DNA from: Candidatus Thorarchaeota archaeon
GTDB lineage: Archaea > Asgardarchaeota > Thorarchaeia > Thorarchaeales > Thorarchaeaceae
Direction: 5' to 3'
NCBI GenBank assembly: GCA_016839275.1
Contig: JAEOUM010000025.1
Coordinates: forward strand, 895 to 64,894
DNA: 64,000 bases
The notes beneath the pieces are model-generated. The model was given only the letters and a program-made list of their open reading frames with translations. It was not told the origin of the DNA and searched no databases. Shown here in pieces: positions 21,017 to 42,920 of the stretch. How positions within the stretch are numbered: position 1 is the first letter of the stretch; the number at the start of each line of letters is the position of its first letter. A program made the translations under genes and the position numbers.

Positions 21017-23359
21017 TCACCATCTTCCGTGATGACAGTGACAATGCTTCATGTGTTTATACTCATGAATCACAATAGCTCCATGAACATACCCAATCGG
21101 ATCGAATCCTGCCTCATACGAAACTTCACCACTTGGGTCAAAGATGCGTATCTGGAAGATGTCTTTTGCGCAACGACCTCTGTTGTCCCAGACATCAACT
21201 CGAACTACATAACCATCGTCAATGGATTGCACCTTACAGTTGTGTAGTTTAATCAGCATGACAGTACAATTGGCCTCGAAGTAGGCGTGGTTTCCATCTA
21301 TCACGACTTCCAAGATATCCGTACTTATGATCGTGTAAATCCACTTACCAATCTTAATGGAGTACAGGAATACTCCAGAGATATCACCATCAGACTTGAG
21401 TCTCACAACAAAGGCAAAATGACCCTTTCTCCCATCAGAATCTCTAATCCAGCCGCCTCCTGTGATCCAACCGGGTGTGGGCTCGCCGGTGATTGTAATG
21501 CTTGCTGATTCCACAGTCATCTCTTGGTCAAGCTCTCCTCTGTCGAGGTCTCCGTTGTAAGCAGTGACAACGATTGTATGCTCGCCTTCTGATGCAGGAA
21601 CCGCATAATCGCCTGCAGTTGTAGCGATAAGCTCTCCATCAATCTCCACAATTAGGACGACAGTGTCGCTTTCGGGGTCAATCACTGTAACCGTCCAAAA
21701 GCCAGGATCCGAAACGGTCGTTCCACCTGAATGGACTATTGTTATTTGAGGGGCAGTGGTGTCATCATCAACTATTGTGACAGTTTCTGAGAGTGTGCTG
21801 AATTCTTGATCTTCCACACCTACTTCTAGGTCCGCATTCGTTGCATTCACCCTAATTGTATGAAGACCCAGAGTGTTTGGAACTGGATAGTCACCAGAAG
21901 CCGCACCAACTAACACTCCATCAATCTCAACACTGACTGCAGAAATACCACTCTCTGGATCTGAAACCGTGACAGTCCAATAACCTGGACTTCCATCTGT
22001 TGTATCACCTGTGTAGATTATCGTGATGATTGGACCTGTGATATCGGTATCAATTATTATCATAGCAGAACTCATGGATTCAATATTACCTGCGGTATCA
22101 TTGGAGTAATAGTACACGTAATTGATACCATCTGCGGAAATTGTGAATGGTCCTGTATAGAGCATCCAGTTCTTTCCGTCACGACTATACATGGTCGAAT
22201 GAACTGAGAAGTCATCAATCGCTGAAAGAGTCACAACTACATCCGAGATGTACCAACCATTATCTCCTAAAATTCCATCAGCTAGGAATGTTGTCGTGGG
22301 AGGGGTTGTATCATCAATTACATCCTGAACCTCAATATTCACAGTAGCCTCAGCACTGGTTTCGACACCATCAGACACTCGATAGGTAAAGGAATCAAAA
22401 CCATACCAATCAGAAAATGGAGTATAGACAAGTTCTTCGTCTGATAGAACATTGACCGTGCCAAAAGACGGAGAAGACAAAACTATGAGGTATAGGGAGT
22501 CGCCATCCACATCATAATCATTGCTCAAAAGATCTGATGTCAAGATAGATAGAGATGTGTCTTCATCCATGACAAAGTTATCATCCAATGCAACTGGAGC
22601 GTCATTCACAGCATTGACTGTAATTGTCACAGTGGCTATGTTACCATAGACGAAGGAATCGAATGCGCGATATTCAAAGTGGTCAATCCCATTCCAATCA
22701 TGATCTGGCACATAGATAATGTCCCCTTCAAGGAAGAAGGTGATGGAACCGTGTTCAGGTGGTGTATAAAGCTCCGCGGTAACAAAATCGTACTTATCAA
22801 CGTCATAGTCGTTTAAGAGGACACCAGGAGTAACATCCAGAACAGTATCCTCATCAGTTTCATAGGCATCATCGACTGCAACGGGAGGGTCATTCACAAG
22901 ATTGACTGTGATGGTGACTATCGCAGGGTTACTGTCAGATTCACCATCATTGGCACGATATGTGAAGGAATCTTCACCGAAGAAATCTAGCTCAGGAGTA
23001 TAGCTGAAAGAACCGTCTGATGAGAGAATAAGCGAACCATTGGAAGGCATTGTGTCAATCACTGCAGTGAGAGCGTCGCCATCCACATCATGGTCATTAT
23101 ATAGAACTCCAGGTGCATCTACAAATAGTAGAGTTTCTTCATCGGTGAAGTAACTATCATCTTCAGCCTCTGGTGGTGCGCCTGTTGGCGCAGGTGTGAC
23201 TAGTAGTTGAAATTGGTTGTGTAAGGAAGGAGTTACACTGTGAGTAAGAAGTGTGTCATTACCCAATGAATCGTGTACCACTTGTGGTGCTACGTTCAAA
23301 AGAGCTACAATGAATGCAAACGATATTGCAAGCAAATAGGCTTTCCTCTTCATGAGCAT
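21017..23359 (-). CDS. secreted surface protein with cadherin-like/Ig-like tandem domains and a His/Cys-rich C-terminus
   Basis: Signal-like N-terminus. Three repeats of the V[NL]D[AP]PVA.DD......ED..L...LL.NDYDVDGD type, one GWY...V.L.A.D...AGN-type Ig-like domain, two ~90-aa repeats, a TGGGWI-containing beta domain, and the terminal KHMKHCHCHHGRW. Confidence 0.7.
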   Translation of the reverse strand: MLMKRKAYLLAISFAFIVALLNVAPQVVHDSLGNDTLLTHSVTPSLHNQFQLLVTPAPTGAPPEAEDDSYFTDEETLLFVDAPGVLYNDHDVDGDALTAVIDTMPSNGSLILSSDGSFSYTPELDFFGEDSFTYRANDGESDSNPAIVTITVNLVNDPPVAVDDAYETDEDTVLDVTPGVLLNDYDVDKYDFVTAELYTPPEHGSITFFLEGDIIYVPDHDWNGIDHFEYRAFDSFVYGNIATVTITVNAVNDAPVALDDNFVMDEDTSLSILTSDLLSNDYDVDGDSLYLIVLSSPSFGTVNVLSDEELVYTPFSDWYGFDSFTYRVSDGVETSAEATVNIEVQDVIDDTTPPTTTFLADGILGDNGWYISDVVVTLSAIDDFSVHSTMYSRDGKNWMLYTGPFTISADGINYVYYYSNDTAGNIESMSSAMIIIDTDITGPIITIIYTGDTTDGSPGYWTVTVSDPESGISAVSVEIDGVLVGAASGDYPVPNTLGLHTIRVNATNADLEVGVEDQEFSTLSETVTIVDDDTTAPQITIVHSGGTTVSDPGFWTVTVIDPESDTVVLIVEIDGELIATTAGDYAVPASEGEHTIVVTAYNGDLDRGELDQEMTVESASITITGEPTPGWITGGGWIRDSDGRKGHFAFVVRLKSDGDISGVFLYSIKIGKWIYTIISTDILEVVIDGNHAYFEANCTVMLIKLHNCKVQSIDDGYVVRVDVWDNRGRCAKDIFQIRIFDPSGEVSYEAGFDPIGYVHGAIVIHEYKHMKHCHCHHGRW
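21500..22054 (-). repeat. two intragenic ~90-aa domain repeats
   Basis: DITGPIITIIYTGDTTDGSPGYWTVTVSDPESGISAVSVEIDGVLVGAASGDYPVP aligns with DTTAPQITIVHSGGTTVSDPGFWTVTVIDPESDTVVLIVEIDGELIATTAGDYAVP. Confidence 0.65.
22319..23164 (-). repeat. three intragenic cadherin-like domain repeats
   Basis: Protein residues ~66-347: DDSYFTDEETLL..., VAVDDAYETDEDTVLDV..., VALDDNFVMDEDTSLSI..., each ending in TITVN.VND.P or an equivalent. Confidence 0.6.
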
Positions 23360-35922: not shown

Positions 35923-36282
35923 CTATTTGATTCCTATCCTAGTGGCGATTTTTACAATGAGAAAGACCACAAATGCCACAATTATGAATGTGATCAAGCT
36001 ATTTATGATAGGTCCTGCTGCGAGTTCATAGTTTACATCAGTCCCACCAATACCAGGCAATACAAACTGAATCAAAGGCATGATGAGGCTATTTACAAGG
36101 GCCTGTATGATGGCACCAATGTAGATACCTAGAATGAATGCAACAGCCAATCCCAGAACCTTATACTGGGATATAAAATCAATGAACTCATTGACAAGTC
36201 CTTTCGGCGGAGTCGGTGCAGGTGCGGGAGTTAGTAGTTTTCGTATCTCTCTCAATTCTTCAAGCATTTCGTCATTTGACAT
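35923..36282 (-). CDS. mscL: large-conductance mechanosensitive channel
   Basis: LVNEFIDFISQYKVLGLAVAFILGIYIGAIIQALVNSLIMPLI matches the MscL TM1 region (F..F...GNV.DLAVG.IIG.AF..IV.SLV.D.IMP). Start taken at MSNDEML; the longer ORF to 36423 overlaps the next gene. Confidence 0.8.
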   Translation of the reverse strand: MSNDEMLEELREIRKLLTPAPAPTPPKGLVNEFIDFISQYKVLGLAVAFILGIYIGAIIQALVNSLIMPLIQFVLPGIGGTDVNYELAAGPIINSLITFIIVAFVVFLIVKIATRIGIK

Positions 36283-36388
36283 TCTAACAACCTCAAGCAA
36301 AACGGTAGAATAACATTGAAGTATCTGGAATAATACTTTTGCGTTGAAACAGCTAGAGTAATATTGGAGAAGGACCCAAGCACTATGT

Positions 36389-37018
36389 ATGTCATTCTGG
36401 TTCATTCTCTCAGTCATTGGCATTGTTGTAGTGGTACCGATACACTTCGTTTCGGTGAATCATATTGATCTTGAGGAGAAATTTGGAAAAGAGAGAGGAG
36501 CCAGAATAGGAGCGATTCTAGGCATGATTTCAGGATGGGGAATCTTCCTTTTCCTTTTTGGTCTCTGGTTTTCACCACAACCACAATTCATCATTCCAAT
36601 CATGTCAGAGATTCTACTGATTATCCCCATCTTTGGGCTTATGACACTTCAAATTCCTGTTTTTCACCTAATTCTGTTTGTTATCATTACCATTCCTGGA
36701 GCGTGGCTTGGAATACGAGGAGTCACGGATATTGGCCTCGAAGCATCTGAAACTCACAAATCTACACAGATTATTAACACAGGGATCTATTCGCATATTC
36801 GACATCCACAGTATCTTGGAGCGATGCTATCTCACATCGGAATTACATTCCTTGTGTCGGGATTCTACTCGCTCATTGTTACACCACTTGTAGTCGTAAT
36901 TAACTGGCTCCTCTGTTGGAAAGAGGAAAAAGAACTGGTGAGAGAGTTTGGCGAAACCTATTCACAGTATAGGAAACAAGTGCCTATGTTTCTTCCAAGA
37001 TTAAGAAGACATGAGTAA
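36389..37018 (+). CDS. ICMT/PEMT-family membrane methyltransferase
   Basis: GIYSHIRHPQYLGAMLSHIG and WKEEKELVREFGETYSQYRKQVP. Second member of this family in the window. Confidence 0.7.
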   Translation: MSFWFILSVIGIVVVVPIHFVSVNHIDLEEKFGKERGARIGAILGMISGWGIFLFLFGLWFSPQPQFIIPIMSEILLIIPIFGLMTLQIPVFHLILFVIITIPGAWLGIRGVTDIGLEASETHKSTQIINTGIYSHIRHPQYLGAMLSHIGITFLVSGFYSLIVTPLVVVINWLLCWKEEKELVREFGETYSQYRKQVPMFLPRLRRHE

Positions 37019-37206: not shown

Positions 37207-40200
37207 ATGCGCGCCAGAAAAATTGTACTTGTATCATTCATTATCGTTCCAATTCTTTTGGGTCTAGTTATAACACCACAGACATATCCAAGAAATTCCA
37301 TCTCAAATGATTCACCTAGTGATTCATTATACTCATTGGTAGAAGAAGGAAAGGAATTCAATTCAAAAGCAGGATTTTCGCTTTCACAGGACACTCAAAC
37401 CGGCATTCTGAATCCTGCGAGAATGGTTCAGAGAGGTCATCAAGACACCAGTCTACTTAGAGCAAGAACCGATTCCGGGAAGAACACTCAACAGAATATC
37501 ACCATTGATGAAGCAAATCATTGGACTGCTTCCAGAACAGAGGTTGAAGTTACCAATCTAAGAAAGCTATATGCAGTTAATGGAACTTTTGATGATGAAG
37601 TGGATCCCTGGACAAGCTCAACGTATGACCCAAGTGGGGGAAAACAAACTCAGACTGCGGTATGGAATTCAACGGAAGGATATGTCACAGTAGCGAATAT
37701 TGGAGAATTCAAAGATAGGAACCCACCTCAGGATGATACGTACACGCATCATTATACATCCGAAATAGTATGGTCGCAGACTGTAACCAACTCTCCACTT
37801 TCAAATAACTTCAGTCTAAGTTTCAGGTACAGATATGTTTCAGGTCCAGTTGATCCAGCACCATACGATTTTAGTGGTGATGTGGAACTTCGAATCTATG
37901 TTCACACCGACACCTACTACATGAGTATCGCTACAGGAGATTTGCGAGGTGTCTGGTATTCAATTACTGATTACCCTATAGAGCTCACTGGAGCTCCTGC
38001 AAGTTTCACGGTTGGAATAGGAATTTACATTGAATATGCAGATCTTGTCCTCACAGAAAATGGAGACTATGATGATGATGGATTTCCTGACGGTCTTATC
38101 AATGCACAAAAAATCGAAGTGAATCTTGACGATTTCGAATTCAAAAGCCAGACCCCTGTCCCATATTCAAATGTTGAACTTACATTCAATGCTGAAGGAT
38201 TAACTAGTTTAATTACAGGTCCTACGGGCGGAATCGGGACATCAACGATCTCAAACTCAACACCTTGGAATGTCAGTCCTCTTCAAATAGAAGTAACAGC
38301 AAATACTTCCGTATCGTTTGAATATTCTGTAACGACATACTTCCAGCGAGATATTAATTCCTCTTGGACTACAGATTTGTCAAAACAGGGAGTATCATAC
38401 ACTATAGATTCAGGTCAGAGCTCAGATCTAGTGATGTATACCTATGTATCAACTTCAACCGAATATCAGAATCTTACACTTACGATTGAATATCCTTCAG
38501 ATTGGGAAAACATCACGATTTTAGACCCACTTAACAACGATATCACGGGGTTATGTTCTGCTGCAACAGGTAGTATTTATGTTCCAAACAGTCTTTTTAC
38601 TAGAGTAGGATGGTGGAAGATAACATACCAAGCGTTCAACTATGCCAAGATCATCTCCATTCAAATGCAGGACAGTTTTTCAGGAAATTGGACAGAAAAT
38701 TCCCTCTTCAGAACAGGCAATATCACGCGAACTCAGGTAGAGATAGGTACAGCAAGCGTTACTCCAGAAGCAGGCGCACCAGTTGACATTGAATGGATTA
38801 GACCTAACGGCGCAGTATGGGCTTCCGATTCTATTTCGAGCATCATTGGGGGACAAGTTAACAGCTCATCTTGGGTATTAGGTGGAACGAACACATCAGC
38901 AGGCGAATGGGTTGTAGAGGTGTTCTGGAATAATGGCACGGAACTTGCCTATGGACATGCATTGTTTGATCTTTACCATCAGGCGTCTGTTACCGTAAGC
39001 TATCCAATAATAGAGGCAGATTACGGACAAATCATCTCAAATCTGATTACTTTCAAGGATGCAGATACAGGAGAGTATCTCTTGGATGACAGCGTATCAA
39101 TCGTTGCTAACTGGTCCAGTACGATTGTCACATTTACTCAAAATTATGCGAAGAATTGGTGGGAAGCAGACTTTGATACCACGCTACTTGGCAATGGAAG
39201 ATTTGTCGTAGACGTCAATGCATCAATGCCATACTTTGACATGGTCGCTTCTCAATTTACTGTCATCTCACTTTTTGAAACATCATTGGAAATTCTAAAT
39301 GCGGGCTCAGCTCCAATTGAAAATGGGCTCAATGAGATTTTCACAGTCTTACTAAGCTATGAACTCCTGAACGGAACTGGCGTAGCAGGTGCAGTCCCTA
39401 CTATTTCTCATTCTGGTCAGGAAAATAGTCTTGCATGGAGTAATTTTGTAGATAATAATAACGGATTCTATGCAATCGATATTCGGTGTAATATTTCTGG
39501 TATTTATGAAATTGCCATCACCTTATCAAAACCATTCCATTACAATACATCTGATTCCTTTACATTACTCATCAGAATCGTTGATACTACAGTACAGGGC
39601 TCGAGCCCCTTTGAGGCCCTCCTCATTGGTAGATCATATACCTTCATCTTTAGTTACATCTTTGAGTCCAACAGCAGCTATATTCATGGTGCAACCATAC
39701 TTGCATTTGGAGATGGAGCAGGTTGGATAACCTACACCGAGCTCGAATCAGGACAATACATTGTGAATCTTACTCCTCTGGAAATTGGAGAGCATTATAC
39801 CATACTGACCTTTGAGAAAGATGGTTTTGAAACAGCATCATACAGGTTGACCTTCAGTGTAGAGAGAGTGCCAATCAGTGTTGAAGTCTTGCAGGGACTG
39901 AGTGCTCCTGAGTTGAGCCAAAGTACGATTCTTGTTAGAATATCTGAAACAGACACAGACCAACCCGTGAGTGGATTGGAGGTATACTGTTACATCATTG
40001 ATCCAAACGGAGCTTCAGGTAGTTCAATAATTATGGATGAAACAAGTACGAGCGGAGTCTACAGCGCGGTCATAATTATGCCAGCAGCAGAAGGTGTCTA
40101 CCAACTGCAAATCACATGTGAAGCAGAAAACTATGCTCTAGAATCCTCATTCATTGTTCAACTTCAACCTGGAAGGGACTTCATGACGATGCTTTGGGTT

Positions 40201-40992
40201 GCAACAACCCGCTATTACCCGTTCATGCTAATTCTTACTGCAGTGTGTGTTGGATTAGTGTATCGAAGATCAAAGAGAAAACAACGGATTCGAGAGAATA
40301 AAGATGCCCTTGCAGTGAAGAGACGATTTGATGATGTGAAAAGTCTTCTAGGCGTGATTGTCCTTCATAAAGACAGCGGATTGCCCGTGTATTCTAAGAT
40401 TCTCAGGGAGGGTCTCGAAGAAACTGTGATATCAGCCTTCATCACAGCAATCACAAGTTTCCGTGGCGAGTTTGATATTGAGTCAAGCTCTGAGGAGTGG
40501 GGACTTATTCCAATCTCAGACATTGTTAGAGTAATCTCTACGAATAAATTGGTCTGCGCGTTCATCACAACTGGAAATCCCTCACCCGAGCAACGCGAGA
40601 AAATGATACAATTCGCAAAGAAGGTAGGTTTCATTTTTGATGAAACGATGAGTGATGTTCCGATAGTGGTTCTTGACCAGCGTACAAGAAAGCAGTTTGA
40701 TACATTATTTGAGGACATTCTTGATGGGGCTCTGCTTAGAACATACATGCTAGATGACGAAAAGAAAATACCCACGAATACCTGTGCTAATGAGAGAATT
40801 GCTAGAAAGCAGGGTGTGCAATTCAAACTCGATGAACTTGCATTTGAATTAGCCACATGTGGTCTAGAAGAGGGAAGAGTATACAAGGCGATAATGACCG
40901 CTCTTGAGAATCATTTCCTTGTCACCAGTGACGAGTCGCCATTCGCCTCAGAGATAATTCGAGCCCCTGAGTCGGTTCCTGATGAAACCTAG
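37207..40992 (+). CDS. giant single-pass surface protein with a cytoplasmic Roadblock/longin-like C-terminal domain (putative)
   Basis: N-terminal anchor IVLVSFIIVPILLGLVI. ~970-aa Ser/Thr/Asn-rich ectodomain with more than 20 N-x-S/T sequons. TM helix YYPFMLILTAVCVGLVY followed by RRSKRKQR. ~240-aa cytoplasmic region starting LLGVIVLHKDSGLPVYSKIL...VISAFITAITSFRGEF. Confidence 0.7.
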   Translation: MRARKIVLVSFIIVPILLGLVITPQTYPRNSISNDSPSDSLYSLVEEGKEFNSKAGFSLSQDTQTGILNPARMVQRGHQDTSLLRARTDSGKNTQQNITIDEANHWTASRTEVEVTNLRKLYAVNGTFDDEVDPWTSSTYDPSGGKQTQTAVWNSTEGYVTVANIGEFKDRNPPQDDTYTHHYTSEIVWSQTVTNSPLSNNFSLSFRYRYVSGPVDPAPYDFSGDVELRIYVHTDTYYMSIATGDLRGVWYSITDYPIELTGAPASFTVGIGIYIEYADLVLTENGDYDDDGFPDGLINAQKIEVNLDDFEFKSQTPVPYSNVELTFNAEGLTSLITGPTGGIGTSTISNSTPWNVSPLQIEVTANTSVSFEYSVTTYFQRDINSSWTTDLSKQGVSYTIDSGQSSDLVMYTYVSTSTEYQNLTLTIEYPSDWENITILDPLNNDITGLCSAATGSIYVPNSLFTRVGWWKITYQAFNYAKIISIQMQDSFSGNWTENSLFRTGNITRTQVEIGTASVTPEAGAPVDIEWIRPNGAVWASDSISSIIGGQVNSSSWVLGGTNTSAGEWVVEVFWNNGTELAYGHALFDLYHQASVTVSYPIIEADYGQIISNLITFKDADTGEYLLDDSVSIVANWSSTIVTFTQNYAKNWWEADFDTTLLGNGRFVVDVNASMPYFDMVASQFTVISLFETSLEILNAGSAPIENGLNEIFTVLLSYELLNGTGVAGAVPTISHSGQENSLAWSNFVDNNNGFYAIDIRCNISGIYEIAITLSKPFHYNTSDSFTLLIRIVDTTVQGSSPFEALLIGRSYTFIFSYIFESNSSYIHGATILAFGDGAGWITYTELESGQYIVNLTPLEIGEHYTILTFEKDGFETASYRLTFSVERVPISVEVLQGLSAPELSQSTILVRISETDTDQPVSGLEVYCYIIDPNGASGSSIIMDETSTSGVYSAVIIMPAAEGVYQLQITCEAENYALESSFIVQLQPGRDFMTMLWVATTRYYPFMLILTAVCVGLVYRRSKRKQRIRENKDALAVKRRFDDVKSLLGVIVLHKDSGLPVYSKILREGLEETVISAFITAITSFRGEFDIESSSEEWGLIPISDIVRVISTNKLVCAFITTGNPSPEQREKMIQFAKKVGFIFDETMSDVPIVVLDQRTRKQFDTLFEDILDGALLRTYMLDDEKKIPTNTCANERIARKQGVQFKLDELAFELATCGLEEGRVYKAIMTALENHFLVTSDESPFASEIIRAPESVPDET

Positions 40993-41037: not shown

Positions 41038-41841
41038 CTACTCAAGTTTGCGAACTAAGTAGTAGTCAATCCAGTTCTTTTTCCGGATGAAGGGCACTAT
41101 CAAAATGAGTAGTGCAACAACGACTGCAACGATAATAGCAGTATTGAAGATGAGAGGGATTGCCATCCATTTTGAAGCAATTCCTGTTGAAGCCCAGATC
41201 ACAACAAGACCATAGGCGATATCTCTTCTCAGCACAATCATCAGAGTAGAAATGAGAAGTGCAACAACAAGGACCAAGGCGGTCCAGATTTGTTGTACAT
41301 CCACAGCAATTGTTAGGTTTGCATTTAGAACTGCTGCAGTGTTTGCGATGGTAGCCAATGAGATCCATCCTAAGTAAACACTGGTTGGTAGATGGATACC
41401 CAATTTCTGTCCGAGAGGAACCTCTTTGATTCCTATCTCAAGACGGACATAGGTCAGCAGTAAAATCACTAGGAATCCTACGATTAGTAGCTCGCTCCAT
41501 ACTAAGAGTGGAGTATTGCCATAAGAATAGTGGAATAGAATCAACCAAGCCACATTCAAGACTGCGCCAATTAGATACAGATACCCAATTTTACCTAGAT
41601 ACTCTGCATTCATTTGATTCTTCCTTGCCTGATAGACCATAAAGACAAAGAGTAGGACGTAGATTACACCCCAGATTGCGAAGACGTAACCTGGCGGGGT
41701 GAAAAAGTTGGGGAATGCGTCAGCAACCGTTCCAGTGTTCACTCCGTTGAATGGTAGAATATTTGCAAGTGCGTTCATCACAATAGTGAACACTACTGCG
41801 AAGATGTTTATGATTTGGAATTTCTTATAATTATCTGTCAT
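41038..41841 (-). CDS. polytopic membrane protein, TspO/MBR-like (tentative)
   Basis: FTPPGYVFAIWGVIYVLLFVFMVYQ resembles the ftPAgyaFsIWgvIY block of long 'tryptophan-rich sensory protein'-annotated families. Seven or eight TM helices. Confidence 0.45.
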   Translation of the reverse strand: MTDNYKKFQIINIFAVVFTIVMNALANILPFNGVNTGTVADAFPNFFTPPGYVFAIWGVIYVLLFVFMVYQARKNQMNAEYLGKIGYLYLIGAVLNVAWLILFHYSYGNTPLLVWSELLIVGFLVILLLTYVRLEIGIKEVPLGQKLGIHLPTSVYLGWISLATIANTAAVLNANLTIAVDVQQIWTALVLVVALLISTLMIVLRRDIAYGLVVIWASTGIASKWMAIPLIFNTAIIVAVVVALLILIVPFIRKKNWIDYYLVRKLE

Positions 41842-41906
41842 GAAAACTCCCAAAAATCTTAACGATAATTAATATTTAAAGGTTGCTACAAATCACTTTC
41901 TTGTTC

Positions 41907-42920
41907 CTAGCGTCTTCGAAACAGAGCATAGCCAGCAATTATGACAACACCTACAATAGTAACGGGCATAATGACTTCATTCAGAGTGATCTGTTCTGTT
42001 GTTCCTGTGGTAGTGGTGGTGCTGGAAGTAGTTGTGCTTGAGGGTGTGGTTGCTAGATCTGGAGCATTCCAACCAGCTAGATTTGCTACCAACCACCAAA
42101 AAGCTCTGCCTTTCTGTTCACAACTTGTAAAGGTAGTATGTCCAGCTTCATCACCATTGAAATCAGGATGCTCGATTGGGATCTGGAGCGTATCTTCGCC
42201 TATGCTATAATCATAGGTACTGTGATCGCCATTACTCCAACAATCAAGATCTGCAAAATCAAATAGGATTTTATCATTGTCCAGACAATATTGGCGTATC
42301 TGTTCATTTCGTAACCAGCGATTATAACCACTGCTCCCACCAGCCTGTGCATTACCAGTCATATAGATGAATGTGATACCAGGATTGGGAGTTTCAAGAG
42401 CGGTCATTGCATCAAGATAGTCTTGAACATCTTGCTCTGAGTAATAATCAACTTGCGTGCACCAAGACCAGAGAGAAGCAGTAAGTGTGGGATTACTATC
42501 AATTGTATCTTGTGTCAGCTCTAGAGCACTTGCTCCCTGCCAATAAAGATCAGGAGTAATGTAGCTCTCTGGAGGATTTCCATCGAGAATACAGAGGGCA
42601 TCACTGTCAGTCGGCAGTATAAGATACCCTATAGAAACATCGAAGGTCAAATTAACTGATTCTAGTCGAGAGAGACCTGTTGTGATTTGTCCACCGTGAC
42701 TCGTATGAGCGTAGTGGATGCGAATGTCATCCTGAGCTGATTCAATCCATTCCCCGGGAATCAGACTCAAATCGATACAATTATGGTCGATTATCAACCC
42801 ACCTGACCAAGAGGCAATTCTGCCATTATCTTCGATTGGTGAGCAACTAGTAATCAAAGAACTCAGTGATAGTAAAGTCAAACTCACTATGACTGTTAGT
42901 AGAATTCTGCGGCGTGACAC
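41907..42920 (-). CDS. secreted protein with Thr/Ser-rich stalk and C-terminal TM anchor
   Basis: Lipobox-like signal peptide (LSLSSLITSCSP), ~270-aa globular part, TTPSSTTTSSTTTTTGTTE linker, then the hydrophobic VTIVGVVIIAGYALF and the terminal RRR. Confidence 0.55.
   Translation of the reverse strand: MSRRRILLTVIVSLTLLSLSSLITSCSPIEDNGRIASWSGGLIIDHNCIDLSLIPGEWIESAQDDIRIHYAHTSHGGQITTGLSRLESVNLTFDVSIGYLILPTDSDALCILDGNPPESYITPDLYWQGASALELTQDTIDSNPTLTASLWSWCTQVDYYSEQDVQDYLDAMTALETPNPGITFIYMTGNAQAGGSSGYNRWLRNEQIRQYCLDNDKILFDFADLDCWSNGDHSTYDYSIGEDTLQIPIEHPDFNGDEAGHTTFTSCEQKGRAFWWLVANLAGWNAPDLATTPSSTTTSSTTTTTGTTEQITLNEVIMPVTIVGVVIIAGYALFRRR

Follow-up and report, generated by a model that had tools for sequence, protein, structure and literature searches.

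A Thorarchaeota surface glycoprotein family with a cytoplasmic tail of predicted longin/Roadblock-type fold

Introduction

Archaeal and bacterial surface proteins built from immunoglobulin (Ig)-like repeats normally end a few residues past their membrane anchor. In the Streptomyces conservon, a membrane sensor (CvnA), a Roadblock protein (CvnB), a DUF742 protein (CvnC) and a GTPase (CvnD) are separate proteins of one operon. In Asgard archaea, small GTPases number in the dozens, and longin and Roadblock proteins are numerous as well. All TRAPP and Ragulator core folds have been found in Asgard genomes, TRAPPC3-like proteins are encoded by Thorarchaeota, and the Rab-like GTPases of these archaea lack a C-terminal lipidation extension, their route to the membrane being open (PMC10933270). 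Here, a gene is described from a 64,000-nucleotide stretch of DNA from Candidatus Thorarchaeota archaeon (assembly GCA_016839275.1, contig JAEOUM010000025.1, positions 895 to 64,894 of the forward strand), the whole of which is referred to as the window. The gene encodes a large predicted surface glycoprotein. In the predicted fold of its cytoplasmic tail, a juxtamembrane helix leads into an alpha/beta sandwich of longin/Roadblock type, which is followed by a small, acidic domain resembling a winged helix.

The literature covered for this comparison comprises structural work on GTPases and on Roadblock and longin proteins of Asgard archaea, surveys of Asgard genomes that used structure to find eukaryote-like proteins, and studies of Lokiarchaeum cell architecture. 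Soluble and GTPase-fused Roadblock and longin proteins are described there, and no transmembrane-anchored one. In the searchable literature, the coverage of which is incomplete, no description of a membrane-anchored Roadblock or longin protein in Asgard archaea was found, which agrees with an initial annotation of this DNA, made from the sequence alone, that did not know the architecture as described. The folds are already known, and it is their combination in one architecture that appears to be new.

Protein Architecture and Membrane Topology

The gene occupies positions 37207..40992 on the + strand of the window, which has a G+C content of about 43%. According to the open reading frame (ORF) list and the translation, it begins with ATG, encodes 1261 aa and ends with a stop codon at 40990-40992, exactly as the initial annotation had it. 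The following features were distinguished; helices (H) and strands (E) are given in tail numbering.

37207..37278, + strand: N-terminal signal peptide or signal anchor, MRARK plus hydrophobic residues 6-22 (hydropathy)
37279..40212, + strand: ectodomain, residues 25-1002, rich in Ser, Thr and Asn, acidic, with 23 sequons and probable repeated beta-sandwich modules
40213..40263, + strand: transmembrane helix YYPFMLILTAVCVGLVY, residues 1003-1019
40264..40344, + strand: basic stop-transfer and juxtamembrane helix, residues 1020-1046 (AlphaFold2, H2-27), ending in K-x-R-F-D-D
40345..40719, + strand: longin/Roadblock-like alpha/beta module, residues 1047-1171, beta-beta-alpha-beta-beta-beta-alpha-alpha (AlphaFold2 and Foldseek)
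40741..40929, + strand: winged-helix-like domain, residues ~1179-1241, corresponding to tail residues ~160-222 (AlphaFold2)
40930..40989, + strand: acidic C-terminal end, residues 1242-1261, with a low predicted local distance difference test score (pLDDT)

At the N-terminus, MRARK is followed by a hydrophobic stretch of 17-20 residues, with a Kyte-Doolittle 19-mer average of up to 2.75, and a basic and hydrophobic N-terminus was also found in 92 of 115 full-length relatives. No obvious A-x-A cleavage site was seen at the N-terminus upon inspection of the sequence. The protein had been described as single-pass; the one C-terminal transmembrane helix stands, and the description as a whole is correct only on condition that the N-terminal segment is cleaved off as a signal peptide. 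The protein may therefore be single-pass or anchored at both ends.

The ectodomain (about 980 aa, residues ~25-1002) contains 11.1% Ser, 10.0% Thr and 6.1% Asn, with 4.1% Lys plus Arg. It carries 23 N-x-S/T sequons, about twice the mean of composition-preserving shuffles (12.0 +/- 2.9), none of them after residue 854. Across the 115 full-length relatives, sequon density amounts to 2.5 per 100 aa in ectodomains and to 0 in tails, with a median enrichment over shuffles of z 5.2 and z>2 in 99% of the proteins. The transmembrane helix is directly followed by RRSKRKQR, and the succession of this helix and a Y-R-R-S/x-x-R-K-R-R segment is conserved in relatives. These sequon and topology features exceed chance. 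All the marks of a type I (N-out, C-in) archaeal surface glycoprotein are present, namely an export signal, one C-terminal transmembrane helix, a positive-inside flank and sequons only outside. Since the N-terminus and the sequon pattern hold across the family, the ectodomain is placed outside and the C-terminal region inside the cell on sequence grounds. The sequon-rich ectodomain, the helix with its stop-transfer segment and the topology given in the initial annotation (a glycosylated ectodomain outside, a cytoplasmic C-terminal region) are all borne out by these features.

In Pfam scans, the ectodomain of the window protein gave only a weak MG2 match (E 0.057). Matches to Big_1 (up to 2.8e-14), MG2/MG4, Filamin, Invasin_D3, CarboxypepD_reg and YtkA were obtained for the ectodomains of relatives. 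Internal repeats are visible as a double alignment between the window protein and an ortholog, P0042, described further below, and lengths within the family span 1149 to at least 2342 aa, so that ectodomain repeats differ widely in number. Together, these comparisons establish a long, fast-evolving ectodomain, predicted to be N-glycosylated and to consist of a variable number of Ig-like beta-sandwich repeats.

Predicted Fold of the Cytoplasmic Tail

The tail comprises 242 aa (residues 1020-1261), very close to the length of about 240 aa first estimated for the cytoplasmic region; it is rich in Lys, Arg and Glu, with 14% Lys plus Arg. Modelling with AlphaFold2 from a 20-sequence alignment yielded a pLDDT of 78.7 and a predicted template modelling (TM) score of 0.76. 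The elements of the first part are H2-27, E28-35, E41-46, H53-70, E88-92, E96-102, H108-125 and H139-152, followed by E160-163, H173-181, H189-197, H203-215 and E219-221. The strand-strand-helix-strand-strand-helix alternation read from the sequence at the outset was thus reproduced. The order of the alpha-beta-beta-alpha-beta-beta-beta(-alpha) Roadblock sandwich is matched by the H-E-E-H-E-E-E-H succession of the model. The longin order, beta-beta-alpha-beta-beta-beta-alpha-alpha, in which a second C-terminal helix closes the domain, is matched as well.

When the tail model was compared with the PDB using Foldseek, all of the 50 best matches were longin or Roadblock proteins, with E-values of 0.005-0.05, probabilities mostly of 0.9-1.0 and target-normalised TM-scores of up to 0.62. 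The best of them by TM-score was the TRAPP core subunit 7b6d_H (0.62), followed by the longin domains of VAMP7 (0.61) and Sec22b (0.60). Also matched were COPI zeta/delta, AP sigma/mu, LAMTOR subunits, MglB, dynein LC7, Roadblock2 and Roadblock3 of Prometheoarchaeum (PDB 9jq8, 9jue), Mon1-Ccz1, Fuzzy-Inturned, Gtr1-Gtr2 and a SEA-complex chain. The Roadblock-type matches (MglB, LC7, LAMTOR and Asgard Roadblock2/3) had probabilities of 0.93-1.0, TM-scores by target of 0.50-0.57 and E-values of 0.005-0.04. GAF, PAS and profilin proteins were absent from the best 50; a GAF or PAS fold was among the outcomes that the initial annotation had named as speaking against its assignment.

Towards the C-terminal end of the tail, pLDDT falls below 50 (tail residues 229-242), and this end varies in length and sequence among relatives; residues 1242-1261 are probably disordered according to the model. 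A longer acidic end is found in the paralogs P0018-P0021, P0065, P0122, P0123 and P0137, and within it the amphipathic sequence F-[ILV]-x-[DE]-V-E-x-L-L-x-x-x-K is conserved, a motif absent from the window protein. In its sequence, this motif looks like a short linear interaction motif.

Longin versus Roadblock and Soluble Relatives

Scanned against Pfam and NCBIfam, neither the complete protein nor the tail gave a match reaching threshold, and no match at all came from phmmer and profile hmmsearch comparisons of the tail, both its halves and its soluble relatives with PDB sequences. Pfam scans member by member, covering 40 N-terminal modules and 32 C-terminal domains, likewise gave only sub-threshold matches. 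For Robl_LC7 (PF03259), the query tail had no match at E<=10, and the best score among the 40 diverse members was 16.4 bits (E 0.0077; cut-off 23), in one distant member. Weak matches to MAPKK1_Int (LAMTOR3) were seen in two other distant members (E 0.12 and 0.13). Longin, Sybindin, Sedlin_N and Clat_adaptor_s gave no query match above the gathering score. Profile comparisons with hhalign relied on small hand-built reference sets, whose sequences were verified against the PDB. With these, the juxtamembrane helix and first hairpin aligned with helix 1 and strands 1-2 of human DYNLRB1 at 23% probability over 30 columns. A search with DYNLRB1 as query found no canonical Roadblock genes in about 880 kb of Thorarchaeota DNA.

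A profile of the N-terminal module also retrieved small proteins from Asgard archaea, 142-171 aa in length, among them P0245 and, from Lokiarchaeia, P0250. No hydrophobic segment was found in these proteins, which appear to be soluble. With an hhalign probability of 98.7% (E 4.7e-16) against the tail module, they are, by profile comparison, clearly homologous to it. They end directly after the helix that matches tail H139-152, which gives the minimal domain an order of beta-beta-alpha-beta-beta-beta-alpha-alpha, as in longins. Sybindin gave weak matches in the soluble P0245 and P0253 (14.7 and 13.9 bits; E 0.033 and 0.059; cut-off 25), and the profile of the soluble set matched an alignment of TRAPPC1, Bet5 and TRAPPC4 with an hhalign probability of 48%.

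The evidence from sequence stays below threshold and speaks for both sides, and the hhalign scores are too weak for choosing between longin and Roadblock. Of the original assignment, the fold is supported by the element order of the model and by the 50 best Foldseek matches; membership in Robl_LC7 or in Longin/Sybindin is not borne out by sequence profiles, all scores being below the family thresholds. The module is accordingly not assigned to the Robl_LC7 or Longin Pfam family. It is predicted from the models to belong to the longin/Roadblock superfold, with a longin-like order of C-terminal helices and a Roadblock-like N-terminal helix.

Further observations concern the soluble relatives. 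P0244 and P0261 (219 aa; both cluster members, on two contigs) appear to combine the module with a winged-helix-like domain and to have neither a transmembrane helix nor an ectodomain; they could represent the entire tail in soluble form. P0250 adjoins a 334-aa protein with a RING/PHD-like zinc finger (Lokiarchaeia contig L005, 6001-11331; also L006 and L007). About 2 kb beyond lies a four-gene cluster, which includes a RecA/KaiC-like P-loop protein of 236 aa and a 356-aa protein with a weak match to the tail module (E 8e-4 in a small local database). The P-loop protein was considered as a GTPase and rejected, being RecA/KaiC-like. A 233-aa small GTPase of Arf/Ras/Gtr1-like type, extended at its C-terminus by a Cys-rich segment, is encoded at L008, 1572-2273, - strand. 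P0253, a soluble module protein, lies 3.7 kb away on the other strand. No second GTPase was seen in the vicinity of a relative, and the placement of this one may be due to chance.

The C-Terminal Winged-Helix-Like Domain

Modelled alone from 32 sequences, the C-terminal domain reached a pLDDT of 82.9, with the elements H46-53, a bridge at 60, H62-71, H76-88 and E92-94. The resulting order, H-(E)-H-H-E, is as expected for a winged helix, a three-helix bundle with a beta wing (H1-S1-H2-H3-S2-S3). The best Foldseek match of this domain had an E-value of 0.32, and many of the matches listed contain winged helices, including RPC39, the peptide-recognition (RRE) domains of NisB, MccB and TigE, MarR/AdcR, MntR and Z-alpha. 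Cys 1193 and Cys 1218 are invariant in the aligned Thorarchaeota proteins and not in the wider 32-sequence alignment. Linker and winged-helix-like domain together have a net charge of -7 in the query and a median of -11 in 32 relatives. A basic DNA-binding surface was not found in this acidic region, which argues against DNA binding and favours a protein-binding role; a DNA-binding role was set aside on this ground. In the most divergent subfamily (P0226, P0227, P0231, P0235, P0237 and P0238), tails are about 320 aa long, the first winged-helix-like domain being followed by roughly 80-100 additional residues. By their sequence pattern, these residues look like a second winged helix, which would stand in tandem with the first.

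Conservation and Distribution of the Tail Family

A search with the tail only yielded 26 close relatives, from Thorarchaeota or Promethearchaeota where named, most of which are contig-end fragments. The whole protein retrieved 80 full-length homologs of 1150-2170 aa, mainly from Thorarchaeota, a few being named "COG1470 family protein" or "collagen binding domain-containing protein" by their sources. When a tail profile was run with HMMER against 1.84 billion cluster representatives, 364 matches were obtained at E<=1e-3, 115 of them at E<=1e-30. A full tail is present in 172 of the collected sequences, 120 of which have at least 900 aa. In every one of these 120 large proteins, the tail stands at the extreme C-terminus, a median of 12 residues from the end, behind a transmembrane helix and an ectodomain of predicted Ig-like repeats. 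Such a survey of homologs had been suggested at the outset, and the layout was found to be constant. The shorter entries with a full tail begin within the ectodomain or the transmembrane region, which indicates that they are contig-end fragments.

A scan of GTDB species genomes gave 66 family loci, nearly all in Thorarchaeota, with others in Hermodarchaeota and "Promethearchaeota". Up to three loci occur per metagenome-assembled genome, and tandem or nearby paralogs are present at some of them. Distant members were found in Sifarchaeia, Lokiarchaeota and Promethearchaeota; all named members are from Asgard archaea.

In an alignment of 20 tails, 35 positions are invariant. Among them are K-x-R-F-D-D, G..H..G.P.YS, F..A..FR.E, PISDI, AFI, two cysteines and G-x-E-E, the juxtamembrane invariants being K19, R21, F22, D23 and D24 in tail numbering. 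Tail identity among close relatives amounts to 76-85%, compared with 45% for the ectodomain of the ortholog, and in 93% of 106 comparisons conservation was higher in the tail than in the ectodomain. The possibility raised in the initial annotation that the tail might be a poorly conserved linker is thereby ruled out, the tail being the best-conserved part of the protein. By these sequence comparisons, the tail is a compact, slowly evolving cytoplasmic unit. Pfam and NCBIfam annotation is absent from it and its relatives, and it defines an unannotated domain family, as judged from its sequence, with no model in either library. The size of the family, the several paralogs per genome, the soluble Lokiarchaeia relatives and the winged-helix-like domain had been overlooked initially.

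Gene Neighborhood and Orthologous Locus

The neighbors of the gene are unrelated housekeeping genes. They encode MscL, an ICMT/PEMT-type methyltransferase, a TspO-like protein, AP endonuclease 2, DinB_2, a Na/H exchanger, endonuclease III, a flavodoxin and ABC transporters. The gene for P0042, a protein of 1850 aa (L001, 10001-15553, on a 612-kb contig), sits in the same gene order, and P0042 is for this reason regarded as the ortholog. With BLASTP, the window protein aligns with P0042 from residue 1 to about 976 at 45% identity, and from residue 753 to at least 1240 with P0042 residues 1341-1830 at 66% identity. It is 589 aa shorter and has no equivalent of P0042 residues ~780-1340. As the alignment runs from residue 1 through to the end, the window protein is taken to be complete, merely having about 590 fewer residues of internal ectodomain repeats. 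A gene-call artefact or truncation was excluded on the basis of this end-to-end alignment.

Directly upstream, an ICMT/PEMT-family membrane methyltransferase is encoded at 36389-37018 on the + strand (PEMT, E 4.6e-9; ICMT, E 4.1e-7). It ends 189 bp 5' of the surface-protein gene on the same strand and has the same position at the ortholog locus (L001, 9250-9888). Eukaryotic ICMT methylates prenylated GTPases. The tail of the surface glycoprotein contains no CaaX box, and any connection of the methyltransferase to this protein is therefore speculative. An MscL-like ORF at 35923-36423 on the - strand overlaps the methyltransferase ORF by 35 nt with the 5' ends as listed; in one of the two, the start codon probably lies further downstream. 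A TspO/MBR-like membrane protein (41038-41853, - strand; E 2.9e-5) is encoded between the surface-protein gene and a 337-aa ORF with no Pfam match, located downstream on the opposite strand (41907-42920, - strand). A 336-aa ORF occupies the equivalent place in the ortholog locus (L001, 15561-16571). The window also encodes a second large predicted surface protein (21017-23359, - strand) of 780 aa, with three Big_9/cadherin-like repeats (E 1.5e-54), which is unrelated to the family studied here.

Proposed Function and Alternative Explanations

With moderate confidence, the protein is interpreted as a surface receptor or adhesin whose tail serves as a membrane-anchored docking platform. The ectodomain would act as adhesin or receptor, and the tail would keep a conserved partner from the cytoplasm in place at the membrane, under the surface protein; that such an intracellular partner is conserved is indicated by the tail being more conserved than the ectodomain. 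By analogy with characterised longin/Roadblock modules, the partner could be a small GTPase or another longin/Roadblock/TRAPP-type subunit, and the platform may work as a dimer, as is usual for these folds. GTPases would in that case be placed on the membrane in a manner akin to Ragulator and TRAPP, with the platform fused to a transmembrane protein instead of being attached through a lipid. A transmembrane-anchored platform is attractive because Asgard Rab-like GTPases lack the lipidated extension and the TRAPP and Ragulator core folds are present. Coupling of the tail to a small GTPase or to the cytoskeleton, as initially suggested, stays an inference, for which the gene neighborhoods described next offer no support. 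A wider proposal, regarded as rather doubtful, is that the family comprises transmembrane receptors of Asgard archaea whose fused platform recruits or regulates Rab-, Rag- and Arf-like GTPases devoid of a lipid anchor at the plasma membrane, possibly together with TRAPPC3-like proteins. Contact with the outside would thereby be linked to membrane remodelling or the cytoskeleton, and the proteins would represent a prokaryotic forerunner of receptor-coupled platforms of the Ragulator/TRAPP type.

Several results weigh against the docking-platform interpretation. No small GTPase gene was found in the 64-kb window or within +/-8 kb of the 66 family loci, and neither in the window nor at these loci does a small GTPase, Roadblock or longin gene adjoin the gene, so that an adjacent GTPase as in operons of the MglA/MglB or conservon type is missing. 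A conserved neighbor gene that might encode a partner was not found beyond ortholog-level synteny with housekeeping genes. The tail has no significant Pfam, NCBIfam or PDB sequence or profile match; its profile reached an hhalign probability of only 0.3% against the Sybindin alignment (TRAPPC1/Bet5/TRAPPC4) and a weak 23% against DYNLRB1. No Foldseek match of the tail fell below E 0.001, and the winged-helix-like assignment draws on element order and on sub-significant Foldseek matches. The lack of any E-value below 0.001 and of significant sequence matches, together with a pLDDT of 54-67 at tail residues 50-80, would also fit a modelling artefact, in which case the tail would have another alpha/beta fold, for instance a GAF, PAS or profilin-like one. 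This is considered improbable, as none of these folds is among the 50 best structural matches, the order of secondary-structure elements agrees exactly with longin/Roadblock, and the sole weak Pfam echoes, in three independent subfamilies, are to Robl_LC7, MAPKK1_Int and Sybindin.

The main rival is a purely structural role, somewhat unlikely, in which the tail is an oligomerisation module whose dimerisation clusters or spaces the surface proteins as an envelope scaffold, with no role in GTPase function or signalling. In solved complexes, dimerisation is obligatory for Roadblock and longin domains, and the Foldseek list is full of such dimers; moreover, several paralogs occur per genome with no conserved neighboring partner gene, and Asgard cells have many complex surface proteins and no ordered S-layer (PMC9834061). 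Yet about 35 invariant residues over two domains are more than simple clustering needs, the additional winged-helix-like domain is left unexplained, and the soluble stand-alone copies of the module suggest a function separable from envelope scaffolding. Less likely, and given little weight, is that the tail is a sorting or cargo signal read by Asgard ESCRT or coat-like machinery for delivery, recycling or packing into protrusions or vesicles. Longin folds form the core of coat adaptors, with AP sigma/mu and COPI zeta/delta among the top matches, winged-helix domains are protein-protein modules in ESCRT-II, and some paralogs carry the conserved C-terminal motif F-[ILV]-x-[DE]-V-E-x-L-L. In eukaryotes, however, the longin fold belongs to the adaptor and not to the cargo, and there is neither a Pfam match to ESCRT or coat families nor an ESCRT gene nearby. 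Also less likely than clustering, and very improbable, is that the protein regulates transcription as a one-component system tethered to the membrane, as ToxR and CadC do. Its ectodomain would sense a signal and its C-terminal winged helix would bind DNA, possibly once released by proteolysis. The C-terminal domain does show the order of a helix-turn-helix plus wing, with weak Foldseek matches to the winged helices of MarR/AdcR, MntR, Z-alpha and RPC39. Those matches are not significant, though; the linker and winged-helix region is acidic as described above, its predicted recognition helix is not basic and no DNA-binding Pfam family was matched.

As a large, conserved and directly testable family, these platform-tailed glycoproteins offer a concrete route by which GTPase machinery could be placed on the membrane. 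A link of such machinery to cell-cell or cell-substrate contact, which several eukaryogenesis scenarios need, would also be provided. The case further reveals a predicted fold of the longin/Roadblock type in Thorarchaeota that went undetected with the Pfam, NCBIfam and PDB sequence libraries. Even if the tail should prove to have no more than a structural anchoring role, a major family of Thorarchaeota envelope proteins would have received a useful annotation.

Comparison with Known Systems

The conservon resembles the present case in bringing together a membrane sensor, a small GTPase, a Roadblock module and a module that is putatively of the helix-turn-helix type. Its four parts are distributed over separate proteins of one operon; here, neither a DUF742 match nor a nearby GTPase gene was found. 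Among Roadblock/LC7 proteins (MglB, dynein LC7, Asgard Roadblock2/3), the same alpha/beta sandwich occurs, and the juxtamembrane helix and hairpin can be aligned with it. Known members, in contrast, are small and soluble or fused to a GTPase (PMC10933270), and the tail has an extra C-terminal helix, as in longins, and falls below the Pfam cut-off (16.4 compared with 23 bits). The longin subunits of the TRAPP core (TRAPPC1/Bet5, TRAPPC4 and TRAPPC2; Sybindin and Sedlin) share the order of strands and helices, give the best TM-score (0.62) and are weakly matched, through Sybindin, by the soluble relatives of the module (hhalign 48%). Unlike the tail, they are soluble, and the tail profile has no similarity to the Sybindin alignment, scores being below the family thresholds.

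Longin SNAREs (Sec22b, VAMP7 and Ykt6) and the SRX domain of SRP receptor alpha likewise present a longin-type domain on the cytosolic side in membrane-attached form. These proteins are tail-anchored or peripheral, however, carry the longin domain at the N-terminus and have no ectodomain, and a SNARE motif is absent from the tail. In Ragulator (LAMTOR1-5), which acts with the Rag GTPases, modules of the Roadblock fold are held at a membrane on its cytosolic side and provide docking sites there for GTPases lacking a lipid anchor (PMC5696360), and LAMTOR chains are among the Foldseek matches of the tail. Ragulator is held on lysosomes by the lipidated LAMTOR1, whereas the tail is fused to a transmembrane glycoprotein; the two have no detectable sequence relationship, and a GTPase partner is known for Ragulator alone. 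On the outer side of the membrane, the protein resembles Ig-repeat surface proteins (COG1470-type, Big_1, MG2 and CarboxypepD_reg proteins and invasin-like adhesins), with which it shares richness in sequons and a C-terminal transmembrane anchor and, to judge from its relatives, probably also repeated beta-sandwich modules. What sets it apart from these is the 242-aa tail, predicted to be folded into two domains, that follows the anchor.

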